Shown here: piece by piece, positions 7,770 to 55,636 of the stretch
How positions within the stretch are numbered: position 1 is the first letter of the stretch
Layout of the letters: every line of letters starts with the position of its first letter
Source: an uncultured Clostridia bacterium
GTDB lineage: Bacteria > Bacillota > Clostridia > TANB77 > CAG-508
DNA length: 64,000 nt
Reading direction: 5' to 3'
NCBI GenBank assembly: GCA_934130085.1
Contig: CAKOXK010000002.1
Location: 97,049-161,048 of the forward strand
Made by a program: the position numbers and the translations under genes
The notes under the pieces: generated by a model
Told to the model about the DNA's origin: nothing
The model's input: only the letters and a program-made list of their open reading frames with translations
Database searches by the model: none

Positions 7770-8003
7770 TTACTCAGCTTTCTTTATTAGAGCTTTTACT
7801 GTATCAGTTGGTTGAGCTCCATTCTTAATCCATGTATTAACTTTTTCTTTGTCAAGAACTATTGTTGCAGGATTTGTCATTGGATCATAAGTACCGATTT
7901 GCTCGATAATTTTTCCATCTCTAGCATTTCTTGAATCAGCTACAACGATGTGATAGAAAGGTGCTTTTTTAGCTCCTGCTCTTCTTAATCTAATCTTTAC
8001 CAT
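7770..8003 (-). CDS. rpsP: 30S ribosomal protein S16
   Basis: '[30 protein letters not shown]' is canonical S16. The ORF track begins 3 codons upstream, and the start overlaps the ffh 3' end. Confidence 0.92.
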
Positions 8004-9366
8004 ATTTTTCACCCCCTTCTTCTATTATTTTATCAAGATTCATATTTTTCATCATTTTCTTCATTTGAGGATTCATCTTGCCATTCTTCATTTTCTTCAT
8101 CATGTCTTGAGTCATCTCAAATGATTTCATGAATTTATTTATTTCTGAAACTTGTGTACCACTTCCATTTGCTATTCTAATTCTCCTTGAAGCATTGAGA
8201 ATTTTAGGGTTTATTCTCTCTGCATTTGTCATTGAAGAAATAATAGCTTCTATTTTTGAAAACTCATTATCATCAACCTGAACATTGTATTGACTCATTC
8301 CTGGAATCATTTTAAGTAATGATGATAAAGGTCCCATCTTCTTAACTTGCTTTATTTGAGCTAAATAGTCATTTAAATCAAGATCTTTATTTTTTTGTAA
8401 TTTCTTTTCAAGCTTTTCAGCTTCTTCCATATCAAACTTTTCTTCGGCTTGTTCGATTATTGATAAAACATCTCCCATGCCTAATATTCTTGATGCCATT
8501 CTATCAGGATGAAACTCTTCTAACTCATTAAGCTTTTCACCTGTACCAATAAATTTGATTGGCTTTCCTGTTACACTTTTTATTGATATTGCAGCACCAC
8601 CACGAGTATCACCATCAAGCTTTGTAAGAATAACTCCATCAATTCCTAAATCGGAATTAAACTTTGTTGCAATATTAACTGATTCTTGACCAATCATTGA
8701 ATCAACTACAAGTAAGATCTCATGAGGCTTTAAATTGGTTTTTAGATTCTTAAGCTCTTGCATAAGAGGTTCATCAATTTGCAGACGACCTGCTGTATCA
8801 AGAATAATAACATCATTTAATTTTGATATAGCTTGCTCTTTTGCTTGTTTTGCAATTTTCACAACATCTTTTTCATTCTCGCTAGCATAGACTGGAATTG
8901 AAAGTTCTGCACCAACTACTTGAAGTTGCTTTATAGCAGCAGGACGATAAACATCACATGCAACAAGTAATGGCTTCTTACCTTGCTTTCTAAGAAGGTT
9001 GGCAAGCTTTCCAGCAGTTGTTGTTTTACCAGAACCTTGCAAACCAACAAGCATTATAACTGTTGGTGGGTTTGGAGTAAATGCAATTTTGCTATCAGTT
9101 CCACCTAATAAATTAACAAGCTCATCTTTAACAATTTTAATAACCTGTTGACCTGGTGTAAGAGATTTTAAAACATCTTGGCCAAGAGCTTTATCATGAA
9201 TATTATTAATAAACTCTTTAACTACTTTGTAGTTTACATCAGCTTCAAGAAGTGCAAGCTTGACCTCTCTTAACATATCATTAAGATCTGATTCTGTAAT
9301 TCTAGCTTTTCCTCTAAGCTTTCTTGTAAAAGCTTGAAGCTTTTCTGATAACCCCTCAAAAGCCAT
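7990..9366 (-). CDS. ffh: Signal recognition particle protein Ffh
   Basis: 458 aa with an N-domain, the SRP GTPase motifs '[10 protein letters not shown]', 'DTAGR' and 'TKLDGD', and a Met-rich M-domain C-terminus. Confidence 0.95.
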
Positions 9367-10147: not shown

Positions 10148-11596
10148 TTAATTGTACGAATTCTCATAATCAATTCCTTGATACAAGTTATTTTCTTTCA
10201 TTATTTTTTCAAAGCAATTCATTACTAATTTTTTATGTGCATTCCACTCTGGAGCAATTAGAATATCTTTTGGTGCATCTCCTACAATTCGGTGAACCAC
10301 TATTTCCGGCTTTAAGTGTGTAATTGCATATACTAAGTAATATAAATACTCCATTATATCAAGTGGCTGATATTGTTTTTGATTATAGAGAGCTTCAAGT
10401 AATGTATCTTTTACTACATAAGTTGAGTGAATTTTTATTCCTTGCAAATCAAGTTTATTGATAAAATTTATTGTATCAATTAATTCTTTGCTTGCAAGCT
10501 CTGATACATTCTGAATATCAAAATTACTGCATATTTCTGACACACTTGTGGATTTATTTAAGTCACTAATTTTTTTAAATTCACTTGATTTATCTTTCAA
10601 TTCGATTGTTTCTAATTCGGTTGTTTTTAATTCTGAGATTTTCGCTACTTGTTCGTCATTTTTCTGTTTTAAATTTTTGTTTTTAGATTCATTGCAATTT
10701 GAATATAGATTTCTTGTATTTGCTTTTTTTAGCGTTAGGTTTAATTTTTTAGAATATTCAAAATATTTGTGCCTATCTTCAAATGGCAATCCTAGCATAA
10801 TATGCACGCATACATTTATGTTGTATTTTCTCAAGAGTTTTACACTATTTATAAAATCACTATCTGAGTAACATCTGTTAATCTTTTTCCCAATTTCATC
10901 TGATGAAGTTTGTAAACCTAATTCAACTGTTACATCATATTTTTCTTTATATGAAGCAAGCAACTCACAAATTTCATTTGAAATGCAATCAGGCCTTGTT
11001 GCTATATCAATTCCAACTATTCTATCATCAATAAGCGCCGCATCATACCTTTTCTTTAAATTTTCAATAGTGTCATACGTGTTTGTGAAATTTTGAAAAT
11101 ACACTATAAATTTATTTGCTCTTGTAGCTCGATAACTACTTGAATAATCTTTAACCTGCTCTGTTATAAAGCCATATTGATTGTAAATGTTATCATTCTC
11201 TTTACTCTTAGTTATATTTTTTAAAGAAGTATTTGCGCTGTTCAAAATACTGTTAGATGTATTATGATTATTATTACCTTGCTCAGAAATTTTACTAAAA
11301 TCATTTGTTATATCAGCTTTAAATTTTCCTATAAGTTCTCCTGAACCTTTCGCACTACAATAAATGCAACCCGTTTTGGATAATGTTCCATCTCTATTTG
11401 GGCAAGAAAAGTGCCCATCTACACATATTTTTAAAACTTTCTCTCCAAATTTATCTTTTAAACAATCGCTTAATTTGTTATAAATTTCGTTTTTGCCATA
11501 ATTATTGTTGCAGCTTTTGTTATATGATTTGCTATTCTTATGATTATACTCTTTATAATAATTTTCTTTATTGTTTTCCATAAGGAGATTATACAT
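10148..11596 (-). CDS. Radical SAM protein, TIGR01212 (YhcC-like) family, with Asn/Lys-rich low-complexity insertions
   Basis: The radical-SAM motif 'CPNRDGTLSKTGCIYCS', 'ELGLQT' and the C-terminal 'HRIVGDAPKD' are interrupted by N/K/S-rich inserts (for example 'NNNHNTSNSILNSANTSLKN' and 'NCNESKNKNLKQKNDEQ'). Confidence 0.7.
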   Translation of the reverse strand: MYNLLMENNKENYYKEYNHKNSKSYNKSCNNNYGKNEIYNKLSDCLKDKFGEKVLKICVDGHFSCPNRDGTLSKTGCIYCSAKGSGELIGKFKADITNDFSKISEQGNNNHNTSNSILNSANTSLKNITKSKENDNIYNQYGFITEQVKDYSSSYRATRANKFIVYFQNFTNTYDTIENLKKRYDAALIDDRIVGIDIATRPDCISNEICELLASYKEKYDVTVELGLQTSSDEIGKKINRCYSDSDFINSVKLLRKYNINVCVHIMLGLPFEDRHKYFEYSKKLNLTLKKANTRNLYSNCNESKNKNLKQKNDEQVAKISELKTTELETIELKDKSSEFKKISDLNKSTSVSEICSNFDIQNVSELASKELIDTINFINKLDLQGIKIHSTYVVKDTLLEALYNQKQYQPLDIMEYLYYLVYAITHLKPEIVVHRIVGDAPKDILIAPEWNAHKKLVMNCFEKIMKENNLYQGIDYENSYN

Positions 11597-12533: not shown

Positions 12534-13469
12534 TTAGTTCTTTATATTCTCAATCTCTTCCTTAGATAATGAAGTAATGTCTTGAATTTCTTCTACTGAG
12601 AAATTCTTTGCTAACATTCTCTTTACAATTTCTTGTTGTTTCTTCTTTTCTCCCAATATCTGCCCCTCTTTTAGACCCTCTCTTTTTCCATCTTCTAATG
12701 CATGAGTAATCGCATTCTTTTCATCCATTATTGCTTTTTCTCTTAATTCTGCTACTCTTCTTAACTCTTCTTGCTGACTTATTTCATCTAAGTTCTGCAT
12801 TGCTTCTTTTAATTCTTTATTGGTTTCCATTGCTTTAAAAACCTCCTCTTGATTAGGATTATCCAAAAACAATACCCACTGTGCCAATTCATTATTTGGC
12901 TCTCTCTCCAGTGTTTTCTTTGCCTTCGATATTTCAATTATATAAATCTGAAACATATCTGTCAATACTAAATTTAAGCCTGTGGTCACCTCTGTTATTT
13001 TCCATTCTGTACATATATTTTCTAGTGCTTTTGTCTTCTCTAATGGAAAATCTATTATTATTATTCCAATTACTTTGTTTAAATCCTGATAAATATTTCC
13101 TTTCTGTAATTGGCTCGAGTAAATTCTGCTCCAATAATACAAGAACCTAGCTTCTGTGTCTTGGTTATCAACTAATTGTATCTCTACATCACATATTCTA
13201 CCATCTCCTAATGTTGCTTTTAAATCCAAAATTCCTAACTTTTCTTCTGGATATTTACCAAAAACGTGCCTGTCATTATCAAGTTTTATATCATTTATTT
13301 TTTCTTTTATTACTGATGATATAAGTGCTTTGGTAATTCCTTCATTTCCCTCTCTAAATAATGAATGAAACACAACATCAATTTTCGGTTTTAATAGCTT
13401 TTCTTTGTTTTCTTTTTCACCTTCATTATTATTGTTTTTCTCTTTAGTTAGATTTTGTTTTTTGACCAT
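12534..13469 (-). CDS. Rpn-family recombination-promoting nuclease / putative transposase (PD-(D/E)XK, YhgA-like)
   Basis: 311 aa with 'IDVVFHSLF', 'LDLKATLGDGRICDVEIQ' and a C-terminal 'EGLKEGQILGEKKKQQEIVKRMLAKNFSVEEI' typical of the Rpn/TIGR01784 family. It borders the variable pilin-like locus. Confidence 0.7.
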   Translation of the reverse strand: MVKKQNLTKEKNNNNEGEKENKEKLLKPKIDVVFHSLFREGNEGITKALISSVIKEKINDIKLDNDRHVFGKYPEEKLGILDLKATLGDGRICDVEIQLVDNQDTEARFLYYWSRIYSSQLQKGNIYQDLNKVIGIIIIDFPLEKTKALENICTEWKITEVTTGLNLVLTDMFQIYIIEISKAKKTLEREPNNELAQWVLFLDNPNQEEVFKAMETNKELKEAMQNLDEISQQEELRRVAELREKAIMDEKNAITHALEDGKREGLKEGQILGEKKKQQEIVKRMLAKNFSVEEIQDITSLSKEEIENIKN

Positions 13470-14521: not shown

Positions 14522-15478
14522 CTATTTGTGTACAAGTCTTACAACACTTGATGAAACATGGTTTCCACATGTTACATACATAGAAGTTGAGGTCGCGCGA
14601 ACAAGATTTACACGCGCTTGTTGCCCTCCGGAATTACCACCTGTTCCCCACAATGAGGTTGCTCCTGATATAGACCATGCAATATTTCCATTAACATTAT
14701 TGCCAAGTCCAAAGCAAATATATAATTCACCAGGAATAGTAGTAATATACTGATTTGCCGATCCCACCCCTTGAATAGAAGTTATTGATCCTTCGGTTTT
14801 TCCATTATTATATCCATCTTTATATGAAGCACTATCGGTATTTACTCTACCATCAGCATCACTTACTCCCTTGTTATATGCGCCAGCTCCAGAAACATAT
14901 CCTTCTCCATTATGATACCCAGCTGGAATTTTAACATTTTCACTTCCAGTAGTAGATGCTGTCCACGCACCATTATTCTTCATGGTACCTGTTAGTCCTG
15001 TTTCAGATGCATTTGAAAATGTTGCTCCTTGAATTACTTGACTCTCTGTTGCATCTCCTGTTGCTCTCATTGCTTCTAGCTCCGCTACTTGCTGCTGTAG
15101 ATTCTCTATCTGTTTCTTTAATTTTTCTACCTCATCACTGCTTTCTGATGAACTACCTCCTCCTGTTGTTGAATTTCCACCAGTACTACCTCCTGAACTT
15201 GAACCTCCGTTTGAGGTAGCAGCTATCGCTTGCGTAATTTGATTCAATGTAAGTTGCTCTTGTAAGCTTGAATTTTGATATTGTTGTCCAGCATTTTTAG
15301 CCTGACCAACTATTCCTTTATCATCTAATGCAAGTTTTATTGTAATTCCTGAAAGAATTAGTAAAACAATAATTGTTATTACAAGTGATAATATAGTTAC
15401 ACCGGTTTCTCTCATTTCACGTTTTTTATAATGTTTTTGCTTTATGTTATTTACTTTTCTCATTCTTAATTTCTCCAT
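14522..15478 (-). CDS. Pilin-like surface protein (type-IV-pilin-like N-terminal hydrophobic segment lacking Glu5, G/S-rich linker, coiled coil, divergent C-terminal domain)
   Basis: The N-terminus is basic leader + 'ETG|VTILSLVITIIVLLILSGITIKLALDDKGIVGQAKNAG'. The first ~210 aa are shared with the next gene. The C-terminus ends 'VTCGNHVSSSVVRLVHK'. Inv2 lies 50 bp upstream. Confidence 0.65.
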   Translation of the reverse strand: MEKLRMRKVNNIKQKHYKKREMRETGVTILSLVITIIVLLILSGITIKLALDDKGIVGQAKNAGQQYQNSSLQEQLTLNQITQAIAATSNGGSSSGGSTGGNSTTGGGSSSESSDEVEKLKKQIENLQQQVAELEAMRATGDATESQVIQGATFSNASETGLTGTMKNNGAWTASTTGSENVKIPAGYHNGEGYVSGAGAYNKGVSDADGRVNTDSASYKDGYNNGKTEGSITSIQGVGSANQYITTIPGELYICFGLGNNVNGNIAWSISGATSLWGTGGNSGGQQARVNLVRATSTSMYVTCGNHVSSSVVRLVHK

Positions 15479-15923: not shown

Positions 15924-16925
15924 CTAATTCATAATCAAATATGCATGCATTGGTGTTGACCAGCTAATTGTATTATCGTAACGTGTTGCTCCATCATCAG
16001 TCCATAATCTTGCTCTCATTGTTGCAGCTAATGACGTTGTTAGTATCCCGCTTTTTGCATCATAGCTTTTGTTGAATGTTGCTCTATAATAAGCTCCTAC
16101 TCTCTTTTCTGCATTACATGTTCCACTTACGTTTTCTTTTGATATCGAGTTTTCTGCAAGCTCTACTAGGAAATTACTTGAACTTAATTTTGTATAGTCA
16201 ATTCCAAGGGCTTTGCATAGTGATACTATATTAAATGACGTTCCTGTACCTAAATCAACGAATTTTCCAAGTCCAAAATCACTTGGAGATTCTTTTACTG
16301 CTTTTTTACCTGCCTCAACACCGGAATTGTATGCTCCTGATAAATCTACATATCCGTTTCCATTGTGATAACCTTCAGGTACTGTTACCTTTCCGTTACC
16401 AGTAGTTGACGTAGTCCACGCTCCATTATTTTTCATTGTACCAGTTAGTCCTGATTCAGAAGAGTTAGAAAAAGTGGCCCCTTGAATTACTTGATCTACT
16501 GTTGCTCCTCCTGTTGCCTGTGTTGCTTCTAATTCTGTTACTTGTTGTTGCAACTCTTCAATCTGCTTTTTTAGTCTGTTAACTTCATCACTATTTCCTG
16601 ATGAACTTCCTCCTGATTCTGAACCACTTCCGCTACCTCCTGAACCTGTAATTCCATTTGAAGCATCAGCTATTGCTTGTGTAGCTTGATTCAATGCTAC
16701 TTGCTCCTGTACACTAGCATTTTGATATTTTAATCCTGCATTTTTAGACTGACCAACTATTCCTTTATCATCTAATGCAAGTTTTATTGTAATTCCTGAA
16801 AGAATTAGTAAAACAATAATTGTTATTACAAGTGATAAAATCGTAACACCTTCTTCTTTCATTGCACGTTTTCTATAATATTCTTTACTTATGTTTTTCA
16901 TTGTTCTCATTTTTAAACCCTCCAT
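15924..16925 (-). CDS. Pilin-like surface protein, paralog of 14522..15478 with a different C-terminal domain
   Basis: N-terminus 'KEEG|VTILSLVITIIVLLILSGITIKLALDDKGIVGQSKNAG'. The G/S linker, 'LKKQIEELQQQVTELEA' and 'QVIQGATFSNSSESGLTGTMKNNGAWT' are shared with the neighbouring gene, and the last ~110 aa are unrelated. It follows the large paralog at 17009..19231 after an 83-bp gap. Confidence 0.65.
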   Translation of the reverse strand: MEGLKMRTMKNISKEYYRKRAMKEEGVTILSLVITIIVLLILSGITIKLALDDKGIVGQSKNAGLKYQNASVQEQVALNQATQAIADASNGITGSGGSGSGSESGGSSSGNSDEVNRLKKQIEELQQQVTELEATQATGGATVDQVIQGATFSNSSESGLTGTMKNNGAWTTSTTGNGKVTVPEGYHNGNGYVDLSGAYNSGVEAGKKAVKESPSDFGLGKFVDLGTGTSFNIVSLCKALGIDYTKLSSSNFLVELAENSISKENVSGTCNAEKRVGAYYRATFNKSYDAKSGILTTSLAATMRARLWTDDGATRYDNTISWSTPMHAYLIMN

Positions 16926-17008: not shown

Positions 17009-19231
17009 CTACTTTTCAACTTGCAAAACTGGACGAAGCCCACGGCACGAAGAGTCGTCGCCGGTGCTAGAGTAGAACACACCGCTCGATGTAACGGAGC
17101 CACTGCTTGAAACATAGCGTAAGTCGAAGCCTGCGCGGTACCAAACCGCACCAACGCAGCGAGACGAAAGCCAAAATTCAGCGCCAGCGCTGATATTACT
17201 TGTATTTCTGTTTGAACCTCCCCAATAATTATTGTATATAACTTTTAACCAAGGGTTACTTGACTTTTTATCGTTATTATATCTTTCGTAAGCATAGTTT
17301 CCTTTCTCTTCTGTTGAAAGCCATGTATTTATTCCAGTTGTATTCATGTTATATGATGTTATTTTAGCGTCAGAATAGCCTTTGCTTGCTCCTTTTGTTT
17401 TATCAATGTTCTCATATTGTGTAAATAGTGTTGGTGCATAGCTATTCCATGTACTTGTTATTTTATTTGGCGCACTTGTATCATCTGCATTTGCTGTCCA
17501 TAAGTTGCCAAAGTTACTTAATTTACTCTCATCCATGAAGTCTTCCCATTTTGCATCACGTGCTAACACTACCTTTACTTTTTTGGTTTGTCCGTTCTTT
17601 AGCTTTATTTCTGTTAAATTTCCATATAAATTATTACAGATTGTATCTAAAGCTAATACTCCGTTATTATATGCTGGTGCACCTGTTAATCTTACCTGTA
17701 ATTTTGTTGCTCTGTCTGCAATGTAATAGTCATACTTGCTTGTATCAAACGAACCTGATTGTAAATCATATCCTCCATCTGTTAGTTTTGACCATGTCAT
17801 ATCTGATTCTACTGTTGGCAAACCTGAATTTACTTTATTTACTGACCTTATATCTTTTCCAAGCAAAGCTGCTATTGAATCTGCTTTTACATATCCATGT
17901 GCTTCGCTTCCACTCTTATTCTTATAAAATCTATCTACATTTACTGCTGCACCTACTGATGTGTCTGAAACACTGTCAGCTGAAACTGTTATTACTGGAC
18001 GTAATGCGCAACTTCCACTTTGATTACTTCCTGTCGTATTATAGTTTTGATTTGTTTGAAACATTGTATATGTTGAATATGCTCCATCCGTTCTTGCAAA
18101 AGCAAATCGATAGTACTCATAAGATAAGTCTTCCGAATAAGGTGTTTTACCATCTGATCCTTGATTCCAGGTATAAGAATTCATTCTTGTTGCAAGCCAA
18201 TAATTGTTTCCTGTATTCATCATACTTACTGTTGATTTATTTGTTCTGTTTGGATTTGTAATTGTTGGTGATGTATTTTCAGCTAACATTTGTGTATTAC
18301 TTGATTGAGATGCTGATGTATTTGTTATATCAATATACTCACTTATTTGGTCTGTTGAATATCCATTGTTTGCTGTATCTAATTGATTTATTATTGGCTC
18401 TATCTTTTTATTGTTTTGGTAAGCTCTTGATACAGAATATGTTATATTATAAAAATCTTCTGCATTTACACTTCTTGCTGATAATACTTTTTTGCCGTTA
18501 ATCTCTAGATTTCCATATAACTTTGAGCAGATTTCGTTTAGTGCTTTTACTCCATTTGTATAGCCGTTAATTCCTGATATTGAAACCTCAAAACTTGTGT
18601 TTGCGTTGGCTATTAAGTTTACTGTTCCATCTTCATTTGTACTTAGTACTTTCCATCCTAAATCTTCTGTTTCAATCTCTCCAGCTTCTACCATTGCTAC
18701 ACCTGGTACATCTTGATTATCACTGTTTAATATTTGTCTTAAATGCCTATTTACTCCCTTGCCATCTGTTTTACCAATGTATGTGAATGTACCATCATCT
18801 AGATTTACCATGTAATTGTAACCTTTATATGCTACCTGTGCATAACCATCTCCATTATTTAAAAAATCTTCAAGACCATCATTTCCTACATTTGAACTCA
18901 AATAATCCGCAAGTCTTCCGGTATTTCCTTCTTGTTCCTTTTGAATGTCTATACCTGCTAAATACATGCTCATCTCTTCTTCAGCAGAAGATTTGTCTGA
19001 AACTGCTGTCGCATTTTTTGCTTTTCCAAGAATGCCATCATTGCTTACCATACTTATTGTTATACCTGCAAGAATTAGTAAAATTATAATTGTAATTACT
19101 AAAGCAATAATTGTAATTCCATCTTCACTTAATTTTCTTCTCATTACTTTATAATCTTCTAATTTATTTTTACTATTCAGTTTTGTCTTATTATTTTCAA
19201 CAAATTTTAAATCTTCTTTTAAACTTCCCAT
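17009..19231 (-). CDS. Large pilin-like surface protein, paralog 1 (pilin-like N-terminus + two C-type-lectin-fold-like domains; DGR-target-like C-terminus)
   Basis: 740 aa with N-terminus 'SEDG|ITIIALVITIIILLILAGITISMVSNDGILGKAKNA' and internal 'NYWLATR...GSCALRPVITV'. The C-terminal 'EFWLSSRC...SSCRGLRPVLQVEK' resembles Fib_succ_major/DUF1566/FGE-type CLec domains. Overall ~90% identical to the paralogs at 19625 and 22020. Confidence 0.7.
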   Translation of the reverse strand: MGSLKEDLKFVENNKTKLNSKNKLEDYKVMRRKLSEDGITIIALVITIIILLILAGITISMVSNDGILGKAKNATAVSDKSSAEEEMSMYLAGIDIQKEQEGNTGRLADYLSSNVGNDGLEDFLNNGDGYAQVAYKGYNYMVNLDDGTFTYIGKTDGKGVNRHLRQILNSDNQDVPGVAMVEAGEIETEDLGWKVLSTNEDGTVNLIANANTSFEVSISGINGYTNGVKALNEICSKLYGNLEINGKKVLSARSVNAEDFYNITYSVSRAYQNNKKIEPIINQLDTANNGYSTDQISEYIDITNTSASQSSNTQMLAENTSPTITNPNRTNKSTVSMMNTGNNYWLATRMNSYTWNQGSDGKTPYSEDLSYEYYRFAFARTDGAYSTYTMFQTNQNYNTTGSNQSGSCALRPVITVSADSVSDTSVGAAVNVDRFYKNKSGSEAHGYVKADSIAALLGKDIRSVNKVNSGLPTVESDMTWSKLTDGGYDLQSGSFDTSKYDYYIADRATKLQVRLTGAPAYNNGVLALDTICNNLYGNLTEIKLKNGQTKKVKVVLARDAKWEDFMDESKLSNFGNLWTANADDTSAPNKITSTWNSYAPTLFTQYENIDKTKGASKGYSDAKITSYNMNTTGINTWLSTEEKGNYAYERYNNDKKSSNPWLKVIYNNYWGGSNRNTSNISAGAEFWLSSRCVGAVWYRAGFDLRYVSSSGSVTSSGVFYSSTGDDSSCRGLRPVLQVEK
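17012..17180 (-). other. Putative DGR variable region (VR) at the 3' end of paralog 1
   Basis: The sense strand is adenine-depleted and GC-rich (~55% versus ~30% locally). Differences from the two paralogous copies are confined to codons with pattern [N][N]C/T (for example ggt/aat/ttt, cgc/atc/aac, ggc/aac/cac) and to third-position A/N changes. Confidence 0.75.
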
Positions 19232-19299
19232 TTTGATGTTTTCTCCTTTGAAATCTTGTAAAGCGTTACAATTACTGTATTTAGATTGTTTTTTTAATT

Positions 19300-19501
19300 T
19301 TAATTAAGCTTATAGATTAATTAAAAAAATAAAAAAGATGTTTTCTTACTCTCAGTAGAGAAAAATAAAGTTTTGTATTTTTTCTTTAACCTATTATCCT
19401 TATTACGCAATTTTTACACTTGAATCATAAGCGTTGATTTTACAAGGTTTTCATGTTATTTTTATCTTACTAGATTTTAATTAATCTATAAGCTTAATAA
19501 A
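19300..19501. promoter_or_regulatory. Invertible DNA element Inv3 (orientation X)
   Basis: IR-A 'ttaattaagcttatagattaattaa' (19300-19324) and IR-B 'ttaattaatctataagcttaataaa' (19477-19501). The segment is homologous and co-oriented with Inv2 and Inv4. It lies 69 bp upstream of the paralog-1 start. Confidence 0.8.
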
Positions 19502-19557
19502 AAAATATATTCATTATTAACTTTTTTTACTCTCTCTTCATAAATTTTTATATAATT

Positions 19558-19602
19558 ACACAGTATAATCAATTAAATATTGATTATACTGTGTTTTTTA
19601 TT
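19558..19602 (+). terminator. Plus-strand intrinsic terminator outside IR-B
   Basis: 16-bp stem 'acacagtataatcaat/attgattatactgtgt' with loop 'taaat' followed by 'tttttatt'. It sits 23 nt beyond the stop of paralog 2. Confidence 0.65.
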
Positions 19603-19624
19603 AAATTTCTTTAGATTCTTTTTT

Positions 19625-21880
19625 CTATTTAGCAACTTGTAGGACTGGACGAAGCCCACGGCACGAAGAGAGGACGTCGGTGGTAGAAAGGAACACATAG
19701 TCCGCGGTAATAGAGCCACTGCTTGAAACACAGCGTAAGAGGAAGTTAGCGATGCTCCAACGCGCATTAACGCAGCGAGACGAAAGCCAAAATTCAGCGC
19801 CAGCGCTGATATTACTTGTATTTCTGTTTGCTCCACCACCCCAACAAGCATTGTATATAACTTTTAACCAAGGATTACTTGATTTTTTATCGTTATTATA
19901 TCTTTCGTAAGCATAGTTTCCTTTTTGGTCTGTTGAAAGCCAATTGCTTGCGCCACTTGTGCTCATATTATATGATGTTATTTTTGCATCTGAATATCCT
20001 TTGCTTGCTCCTTTTGTTTTATCAATGTTCTCATATTGTGTAAATAGTGTTGGTGCATAGCTATTCCATGTTGATGTTATTTTATTTGGCGCACTTTTAT
20101 CATCTGCATTTGTTGTCCATAAGTTGCCAAAGTTACTTAATTTACTTTCATCTATGAAATCTTCCCATTTTGCATCACGTGCTAACACTACCTTTACTTT
20201 TTTGGTTTGTCCGTTCTTTAACTTTATTTCTGTTAAATTTCCATATAAATTATTACAGATTGTATCTAAAGCTAAAACTCCATTATTATATGCTGGTGCT
20301 CCTGTTAATCTTACCTGTAATTTTGTTGCTCTATCTGCTATATAGTAATCATATTTACTTGTATCAAATGAGCCTGATTGTAAATCATATCCGCCATCTG
20401 TTAGTTTTGACCATGTCATGTCTGATTCTACTGTTGGCAAACCTGAATTTACTTTATTTACTGACTTTATATCTTTTCCAAGTAATGTTGCTATTGAATC
20501 TGCTTTTACATATCCATGTGCTTCGCTTCCACTCTTAGTCTTATAGAATCTATCTACATTTACTGTTGCACCTACAGATGTGTCTGATACACTGTCTGCT
20601 GAAACTGTTATTACTGGACGTAATGAACAGCTTCCACTTCCATTAGAACCTGATGTTGCATAGTTCTGTCCTACTGTAAATAATGTATACGACGACCTTG
20701 CTCCATCTGTCCTTGCATAACCTAATTGGTAAAAATCTCTTGATAGCTCCTCTGAATATGGTGTTTTTCCATCTGACCCGCTATTCCAATCATAATATGC
20801 AGATCTTGTTGCAAGCCAATAATTGTTTCCTGTATTCATCATGCTTACTGTTGATTTATTTGTTCTGTTTAGATTTGTAATTGTTGGTGATGTATTTGCT
20901 GCTAGCATTTGTGTGTTACTTGATTGAGAGGCTGATGTATTTGCTATATCAATATAATCACTTATTTGGTCTGTTGAGAAACCATGATTTGCTGTATCTT
21001 TTTGATTTATTATTGGTTCTATCTTTCTATTGTTTTGGTAAGCTCTTGATACAGAATATGTTACATTATAAAAGTCTTCCGCATTTACACTTCTTGCTGA
21101 TAATACTTTCTTTCCATTAATCTCTAGGTTTCCATATAACTTTGAGCAAATTTCATTTAGTGCTTTTACACCATTTGTATAGCCATTAATTCCTGATATT
21201 GAAACTTCAAATCCTGTATTGGTATTTGCTATTAGGTTGACTGTTCCATCTTCATTTGTACTTAGTACTTTCCAGCCTAAGTCCTCTGTTTCAATCTCTC
21301 CTGCTTCTACCATTGCAATTCCTGGTACATCTTGATTATCATTACTTAGTACTTGCTTTATATGTCTGTTTACTCCTTTGCCATCGGTTTTTCCTATATA
21401 TGTGAATGTTCCATCATCTAGATTTACCATGTAATTGTGACCTTTATACGCTACTTGAGCATATCCATCTCCATTATTTAAGAAGTCTTCAACTTCGCCA
21501 TTCCCTAAATCATCTTGTATATAATCAGCCAATCTTTTATTTTCATCTTCTGCTTTTGAAACCTCTAAACTTGCTAAGTACATACTCATTTCATCCTCGG
21601 CTGATGCCTTTTCTGAAACTACTACCGCGTTTTTTGCCTTTCCAAGAATTCCATCATTGCTTACCATACTTATTGTTATACCTGCTAAAACTAATAAGAC
21701 AATAATTGTAACTACTAAAGCTATTATTGTTATTCCTGCTTGTTTTAATTTATAGTTTTTCAATTTATACTTTTTAAATTTTAATTCATTTATAGAATTT
21801 TTCATACACTCGTTTTTACTTAATTTTAAGCTTTTTTCATCATACCTCATTTTTGCTTTTTCTCCTTTAAAATCTCTCAA
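19625..21880 (-). CDS. Large pilin-like surface protein, paralog 2
   Basis: 751 aa with N-terminus 'KQAG|ITIIALVVTIIVLLVLAGITISMVSNDGILGKAKNA'. Near-identical to paralogs 1 and 3 except the N-terminal leader, a patch around residues 355-410 and the C-terminal VR. Confidence 0.7.
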   Translation of the reverse strand: MRDFKGEKAKMRYDEKSLKLSKNECMKNSINELKFKKYKLKNYKLKQAGITIIALVVTIIVLLVLAGITISMVSNDGILGKAKNAVVVSEKASAEDEMSMYLASLEVSKAEDENKRLADYIQDDLGNGEVEDFLNNGDGYAQVAYKGHNYMVNLDDGTFTYIGKTDGKGVNRHIKQVLSNDNQDVPGIAMVEAGEIETEDLGWKVLSTNEDGTVNLIANTNTGFEVSISGINGYTNGVKALNEICSKLYGNLEINGKKVLSARSVNAEDFYNVTYSVSRAYQNNRKIEPIINQKDTANHGFSTDQISDYIDIANTSASQSSNTQMLAANTSPTITNLNRTNKSTVSMMNTGNNYWLATRSAYYDWNSGSDGKTPYSEELSRDFYQLGYARTDGARSSYTLFTVGQNYATSGSNGSGSCSLRPVITVSADSVSDTSVGATVNVDRFYKTKSGSEAHGYVKADSIATLLGKDIKSVNKVNSGLPTVESDMTWSKLTDGGYDLQSGSFDTSKYDYYIADRATKLQVRLTGAPAYNNGVLALDTICNNLYGNLTEIKLKNGQTKKVKVVLARDAKWEDFIDESKLSNFGNLWTTNADDKSAPNKITSTWNSYAPTLFTQYENIDKTKGASKGYSDAKITSYNMSTSGASNWLSTDQKGNYAYERYNNDKKSSNPWLKVIYNACWGGGANRNTSNISAGAEFWLSSRCVNARWSIANFLLRCVSSSGSITADYVFLSTTDVLSSCRGLRPVLQVAK
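19628..19796 (-). other. Putative DGR variable region at the 3' end of paralog 2
   Basis: Same A-depleted GC-rich block. It retains AAY-type codons (aat, aac, aac) exactly where the other two copies carry substituted codons. Confidence 0.75.
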
Positions 21881-21918
21881 AGCATTGATACACCTGCGTT
21901 CACATCACTTTTTACTTT

Positions 21919-21943
21919 TTAATTAATCTTTTAGATTAATTAA
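21919..21943. repeat. Solo inverted-repeat site (A'-type) between paralog 3 and paralog 2; no partner IR, no invertible segment
   Basis: 'ttaattaatcttttagattaattaa', identical to the left IR of Inv1, lies 39 bp upstream of the paralog-2 start. The downstream 'aaactattttattgatatgtctttt' resembles the tail of the 185-bp repeat. Confidence 0.7.
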
Positions 21944-22019
21944 AAAATTTAAAATCAAATTCTATAGCAAACGACATATTATTTAAAACTATTTTATTGA
22001 TATGTCTTTTCCTTATATT

Positions 22020-24329
22020 TTATTTAACAACTTGCAAGACTGGACGAAGCCTACGGCACGAAGAGTCGACGCCGGTGCCAGAGTGGAACACACAGTCCGT
22101 TATAATGGATCCACTGCTCGAAACAAAGCGTAAGATGAAGTGCGCGTTGTACCAATCCGCAAAAACGCAGCGAGACGAAAGACAAAAGTCAGCGCCAGCG
22201 CTGATATTACTTGTATTCCTGTTTGCTCCACCACCCCAATAAGCATTGTATATAACTTTTAACCAAGGATTACTTGATTTTTTATCGTTATTATATTTTT
22301 CGTAAGCATAGTTTCCTTTTTGGTCTGTTGAAAGCCAATTGTTTGTGCCACTTGTGCTCATATTATATGATGTTATTTTTGCGTCTGAATATCCTTTGCT
22401 TGCTCCTTTTGTTTTATCAATGTTCTCATATTGTGTAAATAGTGTTGGTGCACAGCTATTCCCTGTTACTGTTATTTTATTTGGCGCACTTGTATCATCT
22501 GCATTTGTTGTCCATAAGTTGCCAAAGTTACTTAATTTACTTAATTTACTTTCATCCATGAAATCTTCCCATTTTGCATCACGTGCTAACACTACCTTTA
22601 CTTTTTTGGTTTGTCCGTTTGCTAACTTTATTTCTGTTAAATTTCCATATAAATTATTACAGATTGTATCTAACGCTAAAACTCCATTATTATATGCTGG
22701 AGCACCTGTTAATCTTACCTGTAATTTTGTTGCTCTATCTGCTATATAGTAACCATATTTATTTGTATCAAATGAGCCTGATTGTAAATCATATCCGCCA
22801 TCTGTTAGTTTTGACCATGTCATATCTGATTCTACTGTTGGCAAACCTGAATTTACTTTATTTACTGACCTTATATCTTTTCCAAGTAAAGCTGCTATTG
22901 AATCTGCTTTTACATGTCCATGTGCTTCGCTTCCACTCTTAGTCTTATAGAATCTATCTACATTTACTGTTGCACCTTCAGATGTGTCTGAAACACTGTC
23001 AGCAGAAACTGTTATTACTGGACGTAGTGAACAATTTGCACTTGCATTATTACCTGTTGTATTATAATTTGCGTTCGTATTAAACACCGTAGATGCAGAA
23101 TATGCTCCATCAGTTCTTGCAAAAGCTAATTGATAGGATTCATTTGACAACTCTTCAGAATATGGTGTTTTTCCATCGGTTCCATGATCCCAACCACAAG
23201 ATGCAGATCTTGTTGCAAGCCAATAATTGTTTCCTGTATTCATCATATCTATTGTTGATTTGTTTGTTCTGTTTAGATTTGTAATTGTTGGTGACGCATT
23301 TGCTGCTAGCATGTGTGTGTTACTTGATTGTGCTCCTGATGTATTTGCTATATCAATATAATCACTTATTTGGTCTGTTGAGAAACCATGATTTGCTGTA
23401 TCTTTTTGATTTATTATTGGCTCTATCTTTTTATTATTTTTATAGGCTCTTGATACAGAATATGTTACATTATAAAAGTCTTCCGCATTTACACTTCTTG
23501 CTGAAAGTACTTTCTTTCCATTAATCTCTAGACTTCCATATAACTTTGAGCAGATTTCATTTAGTGCCTTTACACCATTTGTATAGCCATTAATTCCTGA
23601 TATTGAAACTTCAAATCCTGTATTTGTATTTGCTATTAGGTTGACTGTTCCATCTTCATTTGTACTTAGTACTTTCCAGCCTAAGTCCTCTGTTTCAATC
23701 TCTCCTGCTTCTACCATTGCAATTCCTGGTACATCTTGATTATCATTACTTAGTACTTGCTTTATATGTCTGTTTACTCCTTTGCCATCGGTTTTTCCTA
23801 TATATGTGAATGTTCCATCATCTAGATTTACCATGTAATTGTGACCTTTATATGCTACCTGTGCATAACCATCTCCATTATTTAAAAAATCTTCAAGACC
23901 ATCATTTCCTATATTTGCACTTAAATAGTCAGCAAGTCTTCCTGTATTTCCTTCTTGTTCTCTTTGAATGTCTATACCTGCTAAATACATACTCATTTCT
24001 TCTTCAGCAGAAGATTTGTCTGAAACTGCTACAGCATTTTTTGCTTTTCTAAGAATTCCATCATTGCTTACCATACTTATTGTTATACCTGCTAAAACCA
24101 ATAAGACAATAATTGTAACTACTAAAGCTATTATTGTTATTCCTGCTTGAGTAATTTTATATTTTCTTAATTTGCATTTATTTATTTGATTGCTGTTACT
24201 AATTTTCTTATTTTCATTGTCCCTGTTTTTCATTTTTAATCTCATTCCTTCCTTGCCTCCGCTATCGCTAAGGCACAAATCCTTATTAAATCTAGAGTAT
24301 CTCATTTTTAATCTCCGTATAATGCGCAT
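22020..24329 (-). CDS. Large pilin-like surface protein, paralog 3 (first gene of the array)
   Basis: 769 aa with a long basic leader, then 'TQAG|ITIIALVVTIIVLLVLAGITISMVSNDGILRKAKNA'. It has a conventional AT-rich upstream region shared divergently with the RHH gene at 24719. Confidence 0.7.
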   Translation of the reverse strand: MRIIRRLKMRYSRFNKDLCLSDSGGKEGMRLKMKNRDNENKKISNSNQINKCKLRKYKITQAGITIIALVVTIIVLLVLAGITISMVSNDGILRKAKNAVAVSDKSSAEEEMSMYLAGIDIQREQEGNTGRLADYLSANIGNDGLEDFLNNGDGYAQVAYKGHNYMVNLDDGTFTYIGKTDGKGVNRHIKQVLSNDNQDVPGIAMVEAGEIETEDLGWKVLSTNEDGTVNLIANTNTGFEVSISGINGYTNGVKALNEICSKLYGSLEINGKKVLSARSVNAEDFYNVTYSVSRAYKNNKKIEPIINQKDTANHGFSTDQISDYIDIANTSGAQSSNTHMLAANASPTITNLNRTNKSTIDMMNTGNNYWLATRSASCGWDHGTDGKTPYSEELSNESYQLAFARTDGAYSASTVFNTNANYNTTGNNASANCSLRPVITVSADSVSDTSEGATVNVDRFYKTKSGSEAHGHVKADSIAALLGKDIRSVNKVNSGLPTVESDMTWSKLTDGGYDLQSGSFDTNKYGYYIADRATKLQVRLTGAPAYNNGVLALDTICNNLYGNLTEIKLANGQTKKVKVVLARDAKWEDFMDESKLSKLSNFGNLWTTNADDTSAPNKITVTGNSCAPTLFTQYENIDKTKGASKGYSDAKITSYNMSTSGTNNWLSTDQKGNYAYEKYNNDKKSSNPWLKVIYNAYWGGGANRNTSNISAGADFCLSSRCVFADWYNAHFILRFVSSSGSIITDCVFHSGTGVDSSCRRLRPVLQVVK
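22023..22190 (-). other. Putative DGR variable region at the 3' end of paralog 3
   Basis: Same A-depleted GC-rich block with the third set of codon variants (ttt, gat, aac, cac, atc, ttt...). Confidence 0.75.
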
Positions 24330-25118: not shown

Positions 25119-27134
25119 TTATAGTTCACAGTCTATTGATATATTATTTCCATTATAATCATCTATATTTTGCGTTGTTGTTCCTAGTGTTTTTGTTTCT
25201 CCGTTTACTTTGCCTTCTACAACTATTGTTTGTGAACCGTTTCCATGTATTTCTCCTAATGAGATTTCTTGTTGTTCTTTGCTTAGATCCACAGTTACGT
25301 TTTTCTTTATTTGCTCTTTTCCGTTTACTGTTACTACAATTGGTACTGATATTTTTGTACTTTCTGCTACAGTATTTGTTGTGTTTGATGTTTTTGAACT
25401 GTTCTTTTTTATCATGCTACTTGATACCGTAAGTTCAAGTGTTATCTTCGCAGTACTTTCCTTTTTTTCAATTTTGTTAACTACTAGGTCTATGGTTGTG
25501 TTTTGTGCTACCTCTTTACCTTGTTCAATACTTTGTGATATTACCTTGCCATCAGTTTTTGTCTCATCGCTTGTGTATGTTATATTAGCTTTTAGGTTTG
25601 CATTGCTTAATGTTGCTTTTGCTGTTCCTTCATCCATATCAAATACTGTTGGTACTGTAGTTTTCTTTACGCCTTTGCTTACGTGTATTGTTATTGTATC
25701 GCCTGATTTTACTAAAACTCCGGCTTTGGTTTCTTGTCTGATTACTTTGTTTTCTTCTACTGAGTTGCTATTTTCATCTACTTCTTTTATAGTAATTCCC
25801 ATTTTTTTGGCATCTTCTCTTACATCACCAATTTCTTTGCCTGTGAAGTCTGGTAATTCAGTTGTTTCTGGTCCTGTGCTTAATGTTATTTGAACCTCTG
25901 TACCTTCTTCTACCTTCTGGTTCTCATCTGATTTCGGATTTTGCGATATTATCTTTCCTTCTTCTACATCTGCGCTTGCTTCGGATTCAACTTTGCCTTT
26001 TTTAAGTTTTGATTTTTCTAGTAATTCAGTAGCTTCTTGTTCTGTTTTTCCTGTTAAATCTGGCACTACAACTTTTTTGCTTATTCCACCATCTAATATG
26101 ATTTTCGTAATTAGAAAAACTATTATGAATAATAATACTAGGCTTAATAATACGCATGGAACTTTGGCTTTTGGATGCTTTATAAAAAATGCATTTATTC
26201 CTTTTGGCTTTTTCTTTTTATCTTTAACCCCATCATCTGATACAGCTTGCATTATTCTTGTGTATCCGCCATCTTTATTTTCTATTATTACAAAATCTCC
26301 ATCTGGATCTTTTAGTGCTTCGCTCAAATCATGTAACATTTCTGTGGCTGATTGATATCTATTTATTGGGTCTTTTTGCATTGCTTTCATTACAATATCA
26401 TTCACAGCTTGTGGTATTTCAGAATTAATTTCAATTGGCTCCACTGGTTCTTCTTGCATGTGTTTTAGTGCAACTGATACTGGTGTATCAGCATCAAATG
26501 GCACTTTGCCTGTAAGCATTTCATACATTACAACGCCTAATGAATATAGGTCTGATTTTGCATCTGTTATTCCACCTTTTGCTTGTTCAGGTGAAAAATA
26601 ATGTACAGAACCAATTGTTGTTCCAAATGCAGTTATTGTTGAATTTGATACTGCTTTTGCGATTCCAAAATCAGTAACTTTTGCAACACCATCTTCTGTT
26701 ATTATTATGTTATGTGGTTTTATATCACGATGAATGATTCCGTTTTTATGTGCAACTTCAAGCGCTGCAGCTATTTGTATTGCAATATTTACTGCCCATT
26801 TCCATGAAATTGCTCCATCTCTATTAATTATCTCTTTAAGAGTTTTGCCTTTAACTAGCTCCATTACTATGTAATAAAGGTTATTCTCTTCTTCATGACC
26901 AACATCATATATTGAAACTATATTTGCATGAGATAACCCTGCAGCTGATTGCGCTTCAGTGTTAAATCTTTTTATGAAATCTGAATCCGTGGTAAATTCA
27001 TCTTTAAGTACCTTTACTGCAACAAGTCTATTTAAAACGTGATCTTTTGCCTTGTAAACTGTAGCCATTCCACCGTTTCCAGCCTCTTCAAGAATCTCAT
27101 ACCTGTTGCCAATTATTTTTCCTATTAAATTCAT
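25119..27134 (-). CDS. prkC: Ser/Thr protein kinase PrkC (Hanks kinase with C-terminal PASTA repeats)
   Basis: 671 aa with 'GNGGMATVYKA', 'HRDIKPHNIII' and 'DFGIAK' kinase motifs, a TM segment, and repeated PASTA-like 'VPDLTGKT...' units. Confidence 0.9.
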   Translation of the reverse strand: MNLIGKIIGNRYEILEEAGNGGMATVYKAKDHVLNRLVAVKVLKDEFTTDSDFIKRFNTEAQSAAGLSHANIVSIYDVGHEEENNLYYIVMELVKGKTLKEIINRDGAISWKWAVNIAIQIAAALEVAHKNGIIHRDIKPHNIIITEDGVAKVTDFGIAKAVSNSTITAFGTTIGSVHYFSPEQAKGGITDAKSDLYSLGVVMYEMLTGKVPFDADTPVSVALKHMQEEPVEPIEINSEIPQAVNDIVMKAMQKDPINRYQSATEMLHDLSEALKDPDGDFVIIENKDGGYTRIMQAVSDDGVKDKKKKPKGINAFFIKHPKAKVPCVLLSLVLLFIIVFLITKIILDGGISKKVVVPDLTGKTEQEATELLEKSKLKKGKVESEASADVEEGKIISQNPKSDENQKVEEGTEVQITLSTGPETTELPDFTGKEIGDVREDAKKMGITIKEVDENSNSVEENKVIRQETKAGVLVKSGDTITIHVSKGVKKTTVPTVFDMDEGTAKATLSNANLKANITYTSDETKTDGKVISQSIEQGKEVAQNTTIDLVVNKIEKKESTAKITLELTVSSSMIKKNSSKTSNTTNTVAESTKISVPIVVTVNGKEQIKKNVTVDLSKEQQEISLGEIHGNGSQTIVVEGKVNGETKTLGTTTQNIDDYNGNNISIDCEL

Positions 27135-35056: not shown

Positions 35057-36511
35057 TTATAATTCCATACTTCCCATATCCTCTATAGGCTGTTGTTGAA
35101 CTTGTCCTTGTACCATTGTGGTATCACCTTGTTCTTGATTTTGTTGTGGTTGTTGTTCTCTGTGTTTCCTTGCAGTTTCAGCACTTTCTCTTTGTATTCT
35201 AGCCTTCTCTTCTGGTTCTAATTCCCATGATTTCTTTTCTCCTGTTTCAGTTTTTGTATTTTGTTGTCTATCTAGATAAGTCGTATCTTGTGTTTCATCG
35301 TTTCTTCCTCTATAAAATATTGATCTAATTTGACTAAAAAATCTTGAAAATCTATTTTGTCTAGCAGGTAATTTTTCTAAATTTTCGTGTTGTGAATATT
35401 TTTGGTGTTGTATCGTTTGGTTATACAAATTATTACTTTCTGTTTGTGTAGAAAAAGTTTTCTCATAACTATTGTATCTTTGTTCTGTTGCTTGTTGTCC
35501 TATATCTTTATAGCATTCTCTTTCTTTACTTAGTAATATTCCTTTTAAAACCGTCTTCGTTTTTCCATTTTGATCTACAACTCCCTTTTGAGCATCTATA
35601 ACATAAATATCATTAGGATTTAATAAAACTTCTTGCTCTGCACTATCATAATCTGATAATTGTGTTATATAAGTACCTTGTGTTCCTTTTGGTGCATATA
35701 TCTCCATAACAGTATCATAATCATCATATTTTGCAAATGATGATTGGTACAAGGGTGATGTACTTGTATATCCTTTATTGCTTATACTTTTTCCAATATA
35801 ACTCTCTGGATTTATATTTCCATCTGTTTTTATTGCTCTATAAAGTTTCATTGATTTTGATAATTTTGCTTTTGATAATCCTTCATCTAAGTTTGATAAT
35901 GTACTATCAATATGTTCTAAAGAATCCATATCTTTAACTGCTGTACAAATTGATGGATAACAATTATGTGGAATATTTCTTTGTTGAATATATTGACTAA
36001 TCATTTCATAATTTTCATGTACTGGCTTACTAAAATCTAGTGATTGAATATAATCTTCTATACCTTTAATTTGTTCTTGTGAAAGAGCTCTAGTTTTTAA
36101 TTTGTCCTCCATATCTGTTTTTATTCCATTTTGAATCTGACTTCTATCTGTCCAACTTCTTTTCATAGACAAAATCATATTACTTCCGTTGCTATATTGG
36201 TTTATTGCTTTTGCATTCTCAATACTTAAGTTATTCTTTTTTAATTCTTGCATAAATCCATCAATTTCTTTAGGATTTGTTCCTTGCTGTATCAATTCGT
36301 CAATAGTGTATCCATCTGCTAATCCTCTTAATACATTTTGATAATTAGCATCAGAGTTAAAAATTTGCTTTAAATCAATACTATTTTGAAAAGAGGAATA
36401 TTCACCATTTATAATCTCATCAATTTCAGATTCAGTTAACCCCTGTTTTTTCAGTATATCTGTAAGTGTTTGAGTTTGCTCATTCGACATTTTTAAGTGT
36501 TCGATTTGCAT
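35057..36511 (-). CDS. ADP-ribosyltransferase-domain protein (R-S-ExE class, C3/iota/VIP2-like) with Q-rich C-terminal tail
   Basis: Catalytic triad motifs are in order: 'KLYRAIK' (Arg), 'GYTSTSPL' (STS) and 'SAEQEVLLNPN' (ExE; compare iota Ia 'EYEVLLN'). There is no signal peptide, and the C-terminus is a low-complexity 'REQQPQQNQEQG...QGQVQQQP' tail. Confidence 0.7.
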   Translation of the reverse strand: MQIEHLKMSNEQTQTLTDILKKQGLTESEIDEIINGEYSSFQNSIDLKQIFNSDANYQNVLRGLADGYTIDELIQQGTNPKEIDGFMQELKKNNLSIENAKAINQYSNGSNMILSMKRSWTDRSQIQNGIKTDMEDKLKTRALSQEQIKGIEDYIQSLDFSKPVHENYEMISQYIQQRNIPHNCYPSICTAVKDMDSLEHIDSTLSNLDEGLSKAKLSKSMKLYRAIKTDGNINPESYIGKSISNKGYTSTSPLYQSSFAKYDDYDTVMEIYAPKGTQGTYITQLSDYDSAEQEVLLNPNDIYVIDAQKGVVDQNGKTKTVLKGILLSKERECYKDIGQQATEQRYNSYEKTFSTQTESNNLYNQTIQHQKYSQHENLEKLPARQNRFSRFFSQIRSIFYRGRNDETQDTTYLDRQQNTKTETGEKKSWELEPEEKARIQRESAETARKHREQQPQQNQEQGDTTMVQGQVQQQPIEDMGSMEL

Positions 36512-36556: not shown

Positions 36557-37354
36557 TTATTTTTCTTGTGTAGTTTCTTGATTAGATGTTACAATCATTC
36601 CATCTACAGCTTCATTTATAATTTTAAGCATAAACTCAATAAACTCATTTGAATTTCCTGCATTATTGCAATTTTGAATTGCTGTATAATATTCTTCTTG
36701 ATGTTTCCTTATTATACTTTCTATTGGAATATATTTAAACAATTCTTTCCAATGTGCAAGTATTGCTGTTTGCCATAATCTTGCTGTTCTTCCATTTCCA
36801 TCTGAAAAAGGATGTATAAATACAAATTCATAATGAAATATGGAAGATAAAATCAAAGGATTAACATTTTCTTTAACTTCATTCATCCATCTAAATAGGT
36901 TATCCATTAATTCTGGAACCATTCTATGAGGTGGAGCCATAAATATTTGAACATCCCCATCATAAACAGCTTCTCCATGATTTCTAAATTTTCCGCTATC
37001 ATCTTCAATAGCAAAAGTAAATATTCCCTGTACCTTTTTTAAATCATCTATAGAATACGGATTCACATTATCAATTTCTTCATAAGCTTTATATGCATTT
37101 TTAACTTCTTGAATGTCTTTTTGTTCTCCAATAACTGCTTTTCCATTTATTACTGCTTCAACTTGAAACAATGATAATTGATTATTTTCAATAGCTAAAG
37201 ATGAATGTATTGATTGTATTCTTGTTTTCTTTCTTAATTCTGGAAATCTATTTAAACTTTCAAAATAATTTGCTTCTCCTATTTTCTCCATTATGCCTGT
37301 TGCTAAATTTAACATTTTATCTGTTATTGTATATGGTGGGTAATTTATTTCCAT
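36557..37354 (-). CDS. Fic/DOC family protein (AMPylator-type)
   Basis: Canonical Fic motif 'HPFSDGNGRTARLW'. Confidence 0.85.
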   Translation of the reverse strand: MEINYPPYTITDKMLNLATGIMEKIGEANYFESLNRFPELRKKTRIQSIHSSLAIENNQLSLFQVEAVINGKAVIGEQKDIQEVKNAYKAYEEIDNVNPYSIDDLKKVQGIFTFAIEDDSGKFRNHGEAVYDGDVQIFMAPPHRMVPELMDNLFRWMNEVKENVNPLILSSIFHYEFVFIHPFSDGNGRTARLWQTAILAHWKELFKYIPIESIIRKHQEEYYTAIQNCNNAGNSNEFIEFMLKIINEAVDGMIVTSNQETTQEK

Positions 37355-55539: not shown

Positions 55540-55636
55540 ATTAAAAATCCTCCCACTAAGCTTTTTGTTTAATTTTATGATGGAGGGGTTCAATATATTC
55601 ATGAAATGCAGCAAAATTGATTAGAAAAAAAACTTT

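Follow-up and report, generated by a model that had tools for sequence, protein, structure and literature searches.

Diversity-generating retroelements (DGRs), in which a reverse transcriptase (RT) and a template repeat (TR) act on the variable region (VR) of a target gene, have been described in several bacteria and phages. The DGR of Bordetella phage BPP-1 (Mtd/TR/Avd/bRT) is phage-borne and has a single adjacent target, and its IMH (initiation of mutagenic homing) and IMH* elements and its cruciform were defined experimentally. A previous report (Wu et al. 2018, PMC5758913) showed that MutS-like (MSL) accessory genes co-occur with Avd in architecture D, as in Legionella, that target category 'd' corresponds to CLec2/DUF1566, and that non-adjacent or remote targets, up to seven in Treponema, occur in non-phage lineages with more non-adenine substitutions. 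In the human gut, DGRs of Bacteroides diversify Type V pilus tip adhesins (bioRxiv 10.1101/2024.11.15.621889). It has also been reported that large metagenome surveys miss remote DGR targets (Roux et al. 2021, PMC8144416). In this study, we analysed a 64-kb stretch of DNA (the window; contig CAKOXK010000002.1) from an uncultured human-gut Clostridium. We found that the 3' ends of three tandem genes in it, designated A, B, and C, are very probably VRs of a DGR, and that these genes are likely to be remote targets of a cassette located outside the window.

The three genes are paralogs on the minus strand (Table 1), present where a preliminary description, made from the sequence alone, had placed them, and all three reading frames are intact. 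Whole-gene identity among them was 85-88%, lower than the approximately 90% given in that description. The GC-rich, adenine-depleted block that it reported at the end of each gene was confirmed. The VR cores contain 52-57% GC and 12-13% A, compared with 32-33% GC and 42-43% A in the remainder of each gene, and the GC content of the window is about 30%. We then recounted the differences codon by codon. When the genes were aligned by codon, differences within the final 48 aligned codons affected 31 first or second positions and 10 third positions, whereas the rest of the genes had 167 and 194, respectively (Fisher p = 4e-4). Exactly 12 codons showed the claimed NNY pattern, in which positions 1 and 2 take almost any value and position 3 is always C or T.

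The preliminary description had predicted a trans-acting DGR, with a TR close to an RT gene and an avd-like gene elsewhere in the genome. Contigs of the same or a near-identical species proved to carry such a cassette. In contig L029, the order is a cis target (710 aa), a MutS-like gene, the TR, a second MutS-like gene, Avd, and the RT (317 aa); mraZ and rsmH come next. At the nucleotide level, the cis target and gene B are 92.5% identical; conspecific paralogs are 85-92% identical, and targets of other species 72-78%. The RT lies 2 kb downstream of the TR, carries the motifs IGSMTSQ and YQDD, and has a precomputed Pfam RVT_1 assignment; against NCBIfam it gave only generic RT matches below the cut-off. 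Avd has a precomputed Pfam bAvd (PF22296) assignment and matched NF033474 DivGenRetAVD at E = 1.3e-11, below the cut-off of that model. No description of a MutS-like gene pair flanking a TR was found in the literature, although MSL accessory genes are known. Read in frame, the TR encodes FWLSSRCVNANWNNANFNLRYVSSSGSITTNNVFNSNTNVNSSCRGLRP. It contains 38 adenines, 24 of which fall in 12 AAY codons, and changes at its adenines create no stop codon; the number of peptides it can encode is about 4e18. The 12 AAY codons of the TR are the 12 NNY codons of the VRs, as expected for the adenine-specific mutagenesis from an AAC/AAT template that had been proposed.

The decisive comparison was made with the best-matching TR allele, the CT allele, over the 150-nt core of 38 adenines and 112 other positions. 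Copy A was changed at 21 of the 38 adenine sites and at 1 of the 112 other sites (Fisher p 2.5e-14). The corresponding numbers were 19/38 and 1/112 for copy B (p 1.1e-12), and 20/38 and 4/112 for copy C (p 5.5e-11). Mismatches between the TR and the VRs of the window therefore fall almost only on TR adenines. When the TR of L029 was used instead, the window VRs showed differences at 19-21 of the 38 adenines and at 4-5 of the other 117 sites. When 11 distinct VRs from the species were compared, every one of the 38 adenine columns varied, against 21 of the 112 other columns. The identity of A, B, and C to one another was 26-47% at TR-adenine sites and 95.5-98.2% at the non-adenine sites of the VR, which indicates that each copy was randomised independently on a common scaffold. 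The non-adenine sites thus equal or exceed in identity the flanks of the three VRs, which are 88-97% identical; the 300 nt upstream are 90.6-96.7% identical.

Two further features of the block were described previously and hold in part. Silent third positions had been said to vary between A and any base. The GCA and TCA sites are indeed A in the TR and vary, but the base at the gga/ggc site is C or T in the TR alleles. The 3' end of the block had been called invariant and possibly IMH-like. The GC-rich CGTGCCGTGGGCTTCGTCCAGTCTTGCA is common to the TR and the VR, and the sequences part directly after it; measured from the GC-rich 3' block, which itself belongs to the TR-VR homology, the point of divergence lies 6 nt further on, after CTTGCA. 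However, the first two bases of the block belong to a variable AAC-derived codon, copy C reads GTAGG compared with GTGGG in A and B, and the block does not distinguish TR from VR.

Neither a TR nor an RT is present in the window. A blastn search of the whole window (word size 7) found no fourth copy of the VR block, and neither tblastn with the cassette proteins (RT, Avd, and the two accessories) nor a motif scan detected an RT, Avd, or MutS-like accessory homolog in the 64 kb, in agreement with the preliminary description. A, B, and C are therefore remote targets, and since the cassette lies outside the window, the DGR would act in trans. The same arrangement was observed in related genomes. 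The same cassette adjoins a homologous target in five related species. In four loci from GTDB metagenome-assembled genomes (MAGs; L020, L021, L022, L025), the cassette is adjacent to a target, and each MAG has a further target on a cassette-free contig. As this was seen in each of the four MAGs, one cassette with several remote targets is the rule in this clade.

We also examined whether the cassette belongs to the same genome as the window. Contig L044 (sample ERZ27287188), found by look-up of the protein at the right end of the window, was 100.000% identical to window positions 51870-64000 over 12,131 nt, and the cassette contig L031 came from the same sample. It is thus likely that the genome of the window carries the cassette.

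These results suggest the following mechanism. A chromosomal cassette outside the window would transcribe the TR, and RT together with Avd would copy the TR RNA to cDNA, misincorporating opposite template adenines. By mutagenic retrohoming, this cDNA would then take the place of the homologous 150-nt terminal VR of a target gene, with A, B, and C serving as remote (trans) targets. Each event would re-randomise about 20 residues on one face of the C-terminal C-type-lectin-like domain while keeping the scaffold, because 24 of the 38 TR adenines are in the 12 AAY codons and no stops can arise. We infer the biochemical steps of retrohoming by analogy with the DGR of Bordetella phage BPP-1, and also that retrohoming into the remote copies would still be happening.

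The species has three TR alleles, TG, CG, and CT, at positions 79-80 of the 156-nt repeat. They are carried by contigs L029/L031/L035, L030/L036/L038, and L037/L040/L041/L042, respectively. Each cis VR tracks its own TR allele at these positions, and the cis VR of L029 had 0 non-adenine mismatches to its own TR over 117 sites. This match between cis VRs and their own TR allele is evidence that the cassette is probably active.

Several observations weigh against the proposed mechanism. No contig joins the cassette physically to the window, and the link consists of co-occurrence in one sample and sequence similarity. The TR of L031, from the sample of the window strain, has the TG allele (GGTGCA), whereas each of the eight remote VRs known from the species departs from it at two non-adenine sites. 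These eight read GGCTCN or GGATCN (CT or AT) and match the GGCTCA allele of other samples. This mismatch leaves present-day rewriting of the remote copies uncertain. One explanation is that an older CT allele was the last to write these copies, with no overwriting since; the other is that a second strain is present in the sample. Copy C has 4 non-adenine changes, two of which alter conserved scaffold residues (W>C in FWLSSRC and G>R in CRGLRPV). In another strain, the VR of a third paralog (L003:19914-20068, the same in L004 and L008) has a 2-nt deletion, and its frame ends early, at 701 aa, which suggests a remote target in decay. Three near-identical assemblies (L003/L004/L008), with 5-15 single-nucleotide polymorphisms per 16-20 kb, have identical VRs, so turnover is not fast or is hidden by consensus assemblies. 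Finally, a hairpin downstream of the VR is strong after B (z = -6.9), weak after C, and missing after A. In the BPP-1 DGR, such a hairpin is needed for the target to be recognised. A GC-rich hairpin about 60 nt past the stop codon is common to the cis VRs of L029 and L026.

A perfect 16-bp AT-rich inverted repeat (ACACAGTATAATCAAT...ATTGATTATACTGTGT) was observed at window positions 19558-19594, about 30 nt past the stop codon of gene B, and genes A and C have no equivalent of it. It may act as a terminator or as a cruciform for target recognition by the DGR.

One rival explanation is that the VRs are relics, written by a DGR in the past and no longer rewritten, because the element now serves only its cis target or is absent from this strain; the copies would then drift like ordinary genes. 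The allele mismatch shared by all remote VRs, the 4 changes in copy C, the frameshifted VR, the identical VRs of near-clonal assemblies, and the lack of a hairpin after gene A would all agree with it. On the other hand, A and B each differ from the CT allele at a single one of the 112 non-adenine sites, none of the three reading frames is disrupted, and the CT allele exists in the species, the strain's own allele being uncertain. Moreover, A and B are 98.2% identical at non-adenine sites, compared with 90.6% in the upstream and 68% in the downstream flank, which is better explained by repeated resetting from the TR than by long drift. We regard the relic explanation as a serious possibility, though less probable than not. 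The allele data suggest that cis and remote targets may be updated at different rates. That ordinary diversifying selection or paralog recombination produced the hypervariable C-terminus with no retroelement is scarcely conceivable and is refuted by the TR-VR comparison: the family does evolve fast (85-88% identity among paralogs against 98-99% in inter-strain flanks) and domain 1 also has a divergent patch, but selection cannot account for changes confined to the A positions of a non-coding repeat elsewhere (p down to 2.5e-14), for variation at silent sites that are A in the TR (GCA, TCA), or for the A-depleted, GC-rich composition of the VR, and domain 1, which has no TR, diverges at all three codon positions instead.

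Table 1. Coordinates of the target genes and their parts in the window, and of the TR and MutS-like genes on cassette contigs (aa, amino acids).
Feature	Coordinates	Strand	Description
Target gene A	17009-19231	minus	740 aa; N-terminal hydrophobic anchor, lectin-like domain 1 (undiversified), lectin-like domain 2 ending in VR; basis: open reading frame, paralog alignment
Target gene B	19625-21880	minus	751 aa; architecture as gene A; basis: open reading frame
Target gene C	22020-24329	minus	769 aa; architecture as gene A; VR with 4 non-adenine changes; basis: open reading frame
VR core of gene A	17028-17177	minus	150 nt, homologous to TR; GC 57%, A 12%
VR core of gene B	19644-19793	minus	150 nt; GC 53%, A 13%
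VR core of gene C	22039-22188	minus	150 nt; GC 52%, A 13%
Domain 2, C-type-lectin-like (predicted)	B 19628-20461; A 17012-17842; C 22023-22865	minus	278 aa in B; VR on last five beta strands
Domain 1 (YWLATR...CSLRPVITV)	B 20603-21328; A 17984-18709; C 23007-23732	minus	tandem duplicate of domain 2
N-terminal hydrophobic segment	B 21671-21736; A 19055-19120; C 24078-24143	minus	GITIIALVVTIIVLLVLAGITI in gene B; resembles prepilin leader and helix, Ala at +5
TR	L029:5886-6041		156 nt; also in eight further contigs of the P0136 RT cluster
First MutS-like gene	L029:5243-5725; L026:10495-10869		160 aa in L029; MutS_I (PF01624) mismatch-binding domain
Second MutS-like gene	L029:6628-7203; L026:11590-12165		191 aa; weak paralog of the first, 34% identity over 79 aa

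The cassettes were reached through the target family. Two cluster hits of the family, P0003 and P0007, stood out by VRs that were rich in Asn and in part identical, a sign that a template might be close. The contig of P0007 (L026) encodes a 712-aa target homolog, and its VR (10194-10347) is repeated 825 nt downstream (11019-11172). After this repeat come genes for a 191-aa protein, bAvd, and a 314-aa RVT_1 protein, and every visible difference between VR and repeat falls on an adenine of the repeat. A first set of RT motif patterns had missed the cassette RT, whose motifs are IGSMTSQ and YQDD; the cassettes were found by tblastn with the proteins of L026. A profile search with five RTs gave cluster P0136 (317 aa, 79% identical to the L026 RT), which stood apart from the others. 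Its contigs (L029-L031, L035-L043) are those of the same or a near-identical species as the window. Another RT cluster, P0149 (64% identity; L032-L034), was rejected: it represents a different DGR of another species, with no DNA match to the window VRs, the TR, or the window. This second DGR type, in another gut Clostridium, adjoins ylxM-ffh and has RT and Avd on opposite strands. As in the present cassette, two MutS_I genes were observed in this more distant DGR (L032). The homologous ffh neighbourhood of the window (7990-9366) has no P0149-type cassette. The contexts of P0028, P0033, P0003, and P0024 were also considered as cassette sites and rejected: they are remote targets or have transposase neighbours, and no cassette was seen.

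A DNA pattern scan for the TR/VR scaffold gave 0 matches in a genome-contig collection. The match in viral contig L009, a high-GC phage, was attributed to chance, the viral contigs otherwise giving 0 matches, and the same applied to L010, a high-GC contig and the sole match in the metagenome contigs scanned. Evidently, the VR and TR regions of the species are absent from the three collections scanned in this way. Exact look-up of protein A returned no record. Syntenic contigs were obtained by exact look-up of the neighbouring PP2C phosphatase. They came from human gut metagenomes (Hadza, Nepal, and other cohorts), had flanks 98-99% identical to the window, and gave five further distinct VRs of the same species, variable at the same columns.

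Next, the target proteins were analysed for domains and fold. Domains 1 and 2, about 250 aa each, are homologous (BLASTP E = 1e-10), and only domain 2 is diversified. Domain 1 was considered as a second VR and rejected, since it is A-rich, is divergent at all codon positions, and has no TR-like match. The target proteins matched no Pfam or NCBIfam family at E <= 0.1-1, DUF1566 included, and no PDB sequence at E <= 10. The preliminary description had proposed a C-type-lectin-like terminus, and an AlphaFold2 model (predicted local distance difference test score, pLDDT, 87.7) is consistent with such a fold, with modest structure scores. A model built from the last 170 aa only, in which the domain is cut, had a pLDDT of 40. 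In the fold comparison, Epstein-Barr virus gp42, Ly49, and langerin were within the same range, again with modest scores, and Foldseek searches against PDB and BFVD gave nothing significant. With modest confidence, the variable residues can be placed on a C-type-lectin-like domain.

The proteins had also been called pilin-like. The N-termini have a Gly and a hydrophobic helix, as this would require, and that of the L026 target (KGITLIALVVTIVVLLILAG) has the look of a prepilin leader and helix. However, position +5 is Ala or Ser rather than Glu, and Pfam N_methyl gave 11.7-18.6 bits across the three target N-termini tested (13.7 for gene B), below the cut-off of 21.2. Matches to TIGR01710 GspG were weak (E 0.004-0.13), and none of the window genes scanned was recognised as a pilus assembly gene. 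The pilin assignment is therefore tentative. The target proteins are probably surface-exposed binders, with host glycans, phage, or other bacteria as candidate ligands.

The family is rare. Of 5.8 billion clusters, 37 were returned by one search and 111 by another, and no Pfam domain was assigned to any of them. In species-representative genomes, members were located in MAGs of uncultured Clostridia, and the family is confined to uncultured Clostridia of the human gut. A 161-aa member, P0004, on a Logan contig of 2550 nt, consists of about 24 first residues of the gene A N-terminus fused to about 135 last residues including the VR, and is a target-gene variant with a large internal deletion.

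The array A-B-C is bounded by prkC (25119-27134) and by two smaller genes with a common N-terminal anchor. These two genes, of 318 aa (14522-15478) and 333 aa (15924-16925), both on the minus strand, lie directly downstream of gene A and encode a hydrophobic N-terminal anchor of the gene A type, followed by a Gly/Ser-rich linker and a coiled-coil segment. No lectin-like domain, VR, or family match was found in either. The array is inserted between prkC and rpe, a recombination-prone spot, and prkC is followed by one to three paralogs, depending on the strain. Transposases border the target arrays: PDDEXK_2 in the window (12534-13469, minus), IS200-like Y1 in L003 (20208-20708), and Transposase_mut in L028 (1009-3111). 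Elsewhere in the window, Fic and ADP-ribosyl-exotoxin (ADPrib_exo_Tox) genes are adjacent (35057-36511 and 36557-37354, minus), near a sortase gene, as taken from the annotation of L003. The length of the exotoxin differs by strain (364-484 aa).

We compared the system with those described previously. It fits the description of MSL DGRs with remote targets (PMC5758913). Like the Legionella pneumophila DGR with target LdtA (architecture D, PMC5758913), it is chromosomal, combines Avd with a small MutS_I accessory, and shows adenine-specific differences. Unlike it, this system has a pair of MutS-like genes that flank the TR, and the target family has no Pfam or NCBIfam match, not even DUF1566. 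The targets here also have a duplicated lectin-like domain and a hydrophobic N-terminal anchor with no lipoprotein signal, and the host is an uncultured gut Clostridium. As in Treponema denticola, where TvpA and seven remote targets are served (PMC5758913, PMC4891356), one chromosomal cassette has several scattered paralogous targets, the VRs are C-terminal and of (here predicted) lectin fold, and the targets are, here probably, surface proteins of a host-associated bacterium. However, the Treponema cassette has an HRDC accessory and FGE-sulfatase-type targets, whereas the present one has Avd and MutS-like genes and three tandem remote targets.

The AAY-rich TR, the C-terminal lectin-fold VR, Avd, and a GC-rich VR 3' end shared with the TR are common to this system and the BPP-1 DGR, which differs in being carried by a phage and in having only one target, adjacent to it; the IMH/IMH* elements and cruciform defined there by experiment can only be guessed here. 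Both this system and the Bacteroides DGRs act in the human gut and diversify putative adhesive surface or pilus-associated proteins, but phylum, pilus type, and target fold context differ, and the pilus link is putative here.

The mechanism is not new, and the system is a clear but ordinary example of a DGR. Its particular features are a MutS-like gene on either side of the TR, a target family that lacks annotation and has two lectin-like domains, and three remote targets arranged in tandem. A DGR footprint could be read from a window that contains neither TR nor RT, which is the case that surveys are said to miss (PMC8144416), and a mechanism can be assigned to an otherwise unannotated and rare protein family. 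A bolder reading, which we consider rather unlikely, is that the targets are very large type-IV-pilin-like proteins of a Gram-positive gut anaerobe, with DGR-diversified lectin ends, and that the cassette updates its cis target readily and the remote ones rarely. If this were true, the pilin-like targets would represent in a Firmicute what the Type V pilus adhesins diversified by DGRs are in Bacteroides, and the mismatch between TR allele and remote VRs would be a natural record of this hierarchy among targets. The MutS-like pair bracketing the TR and the cis/remote difference in TR-allele match offer a handle on how a DGR chooses among several targets.

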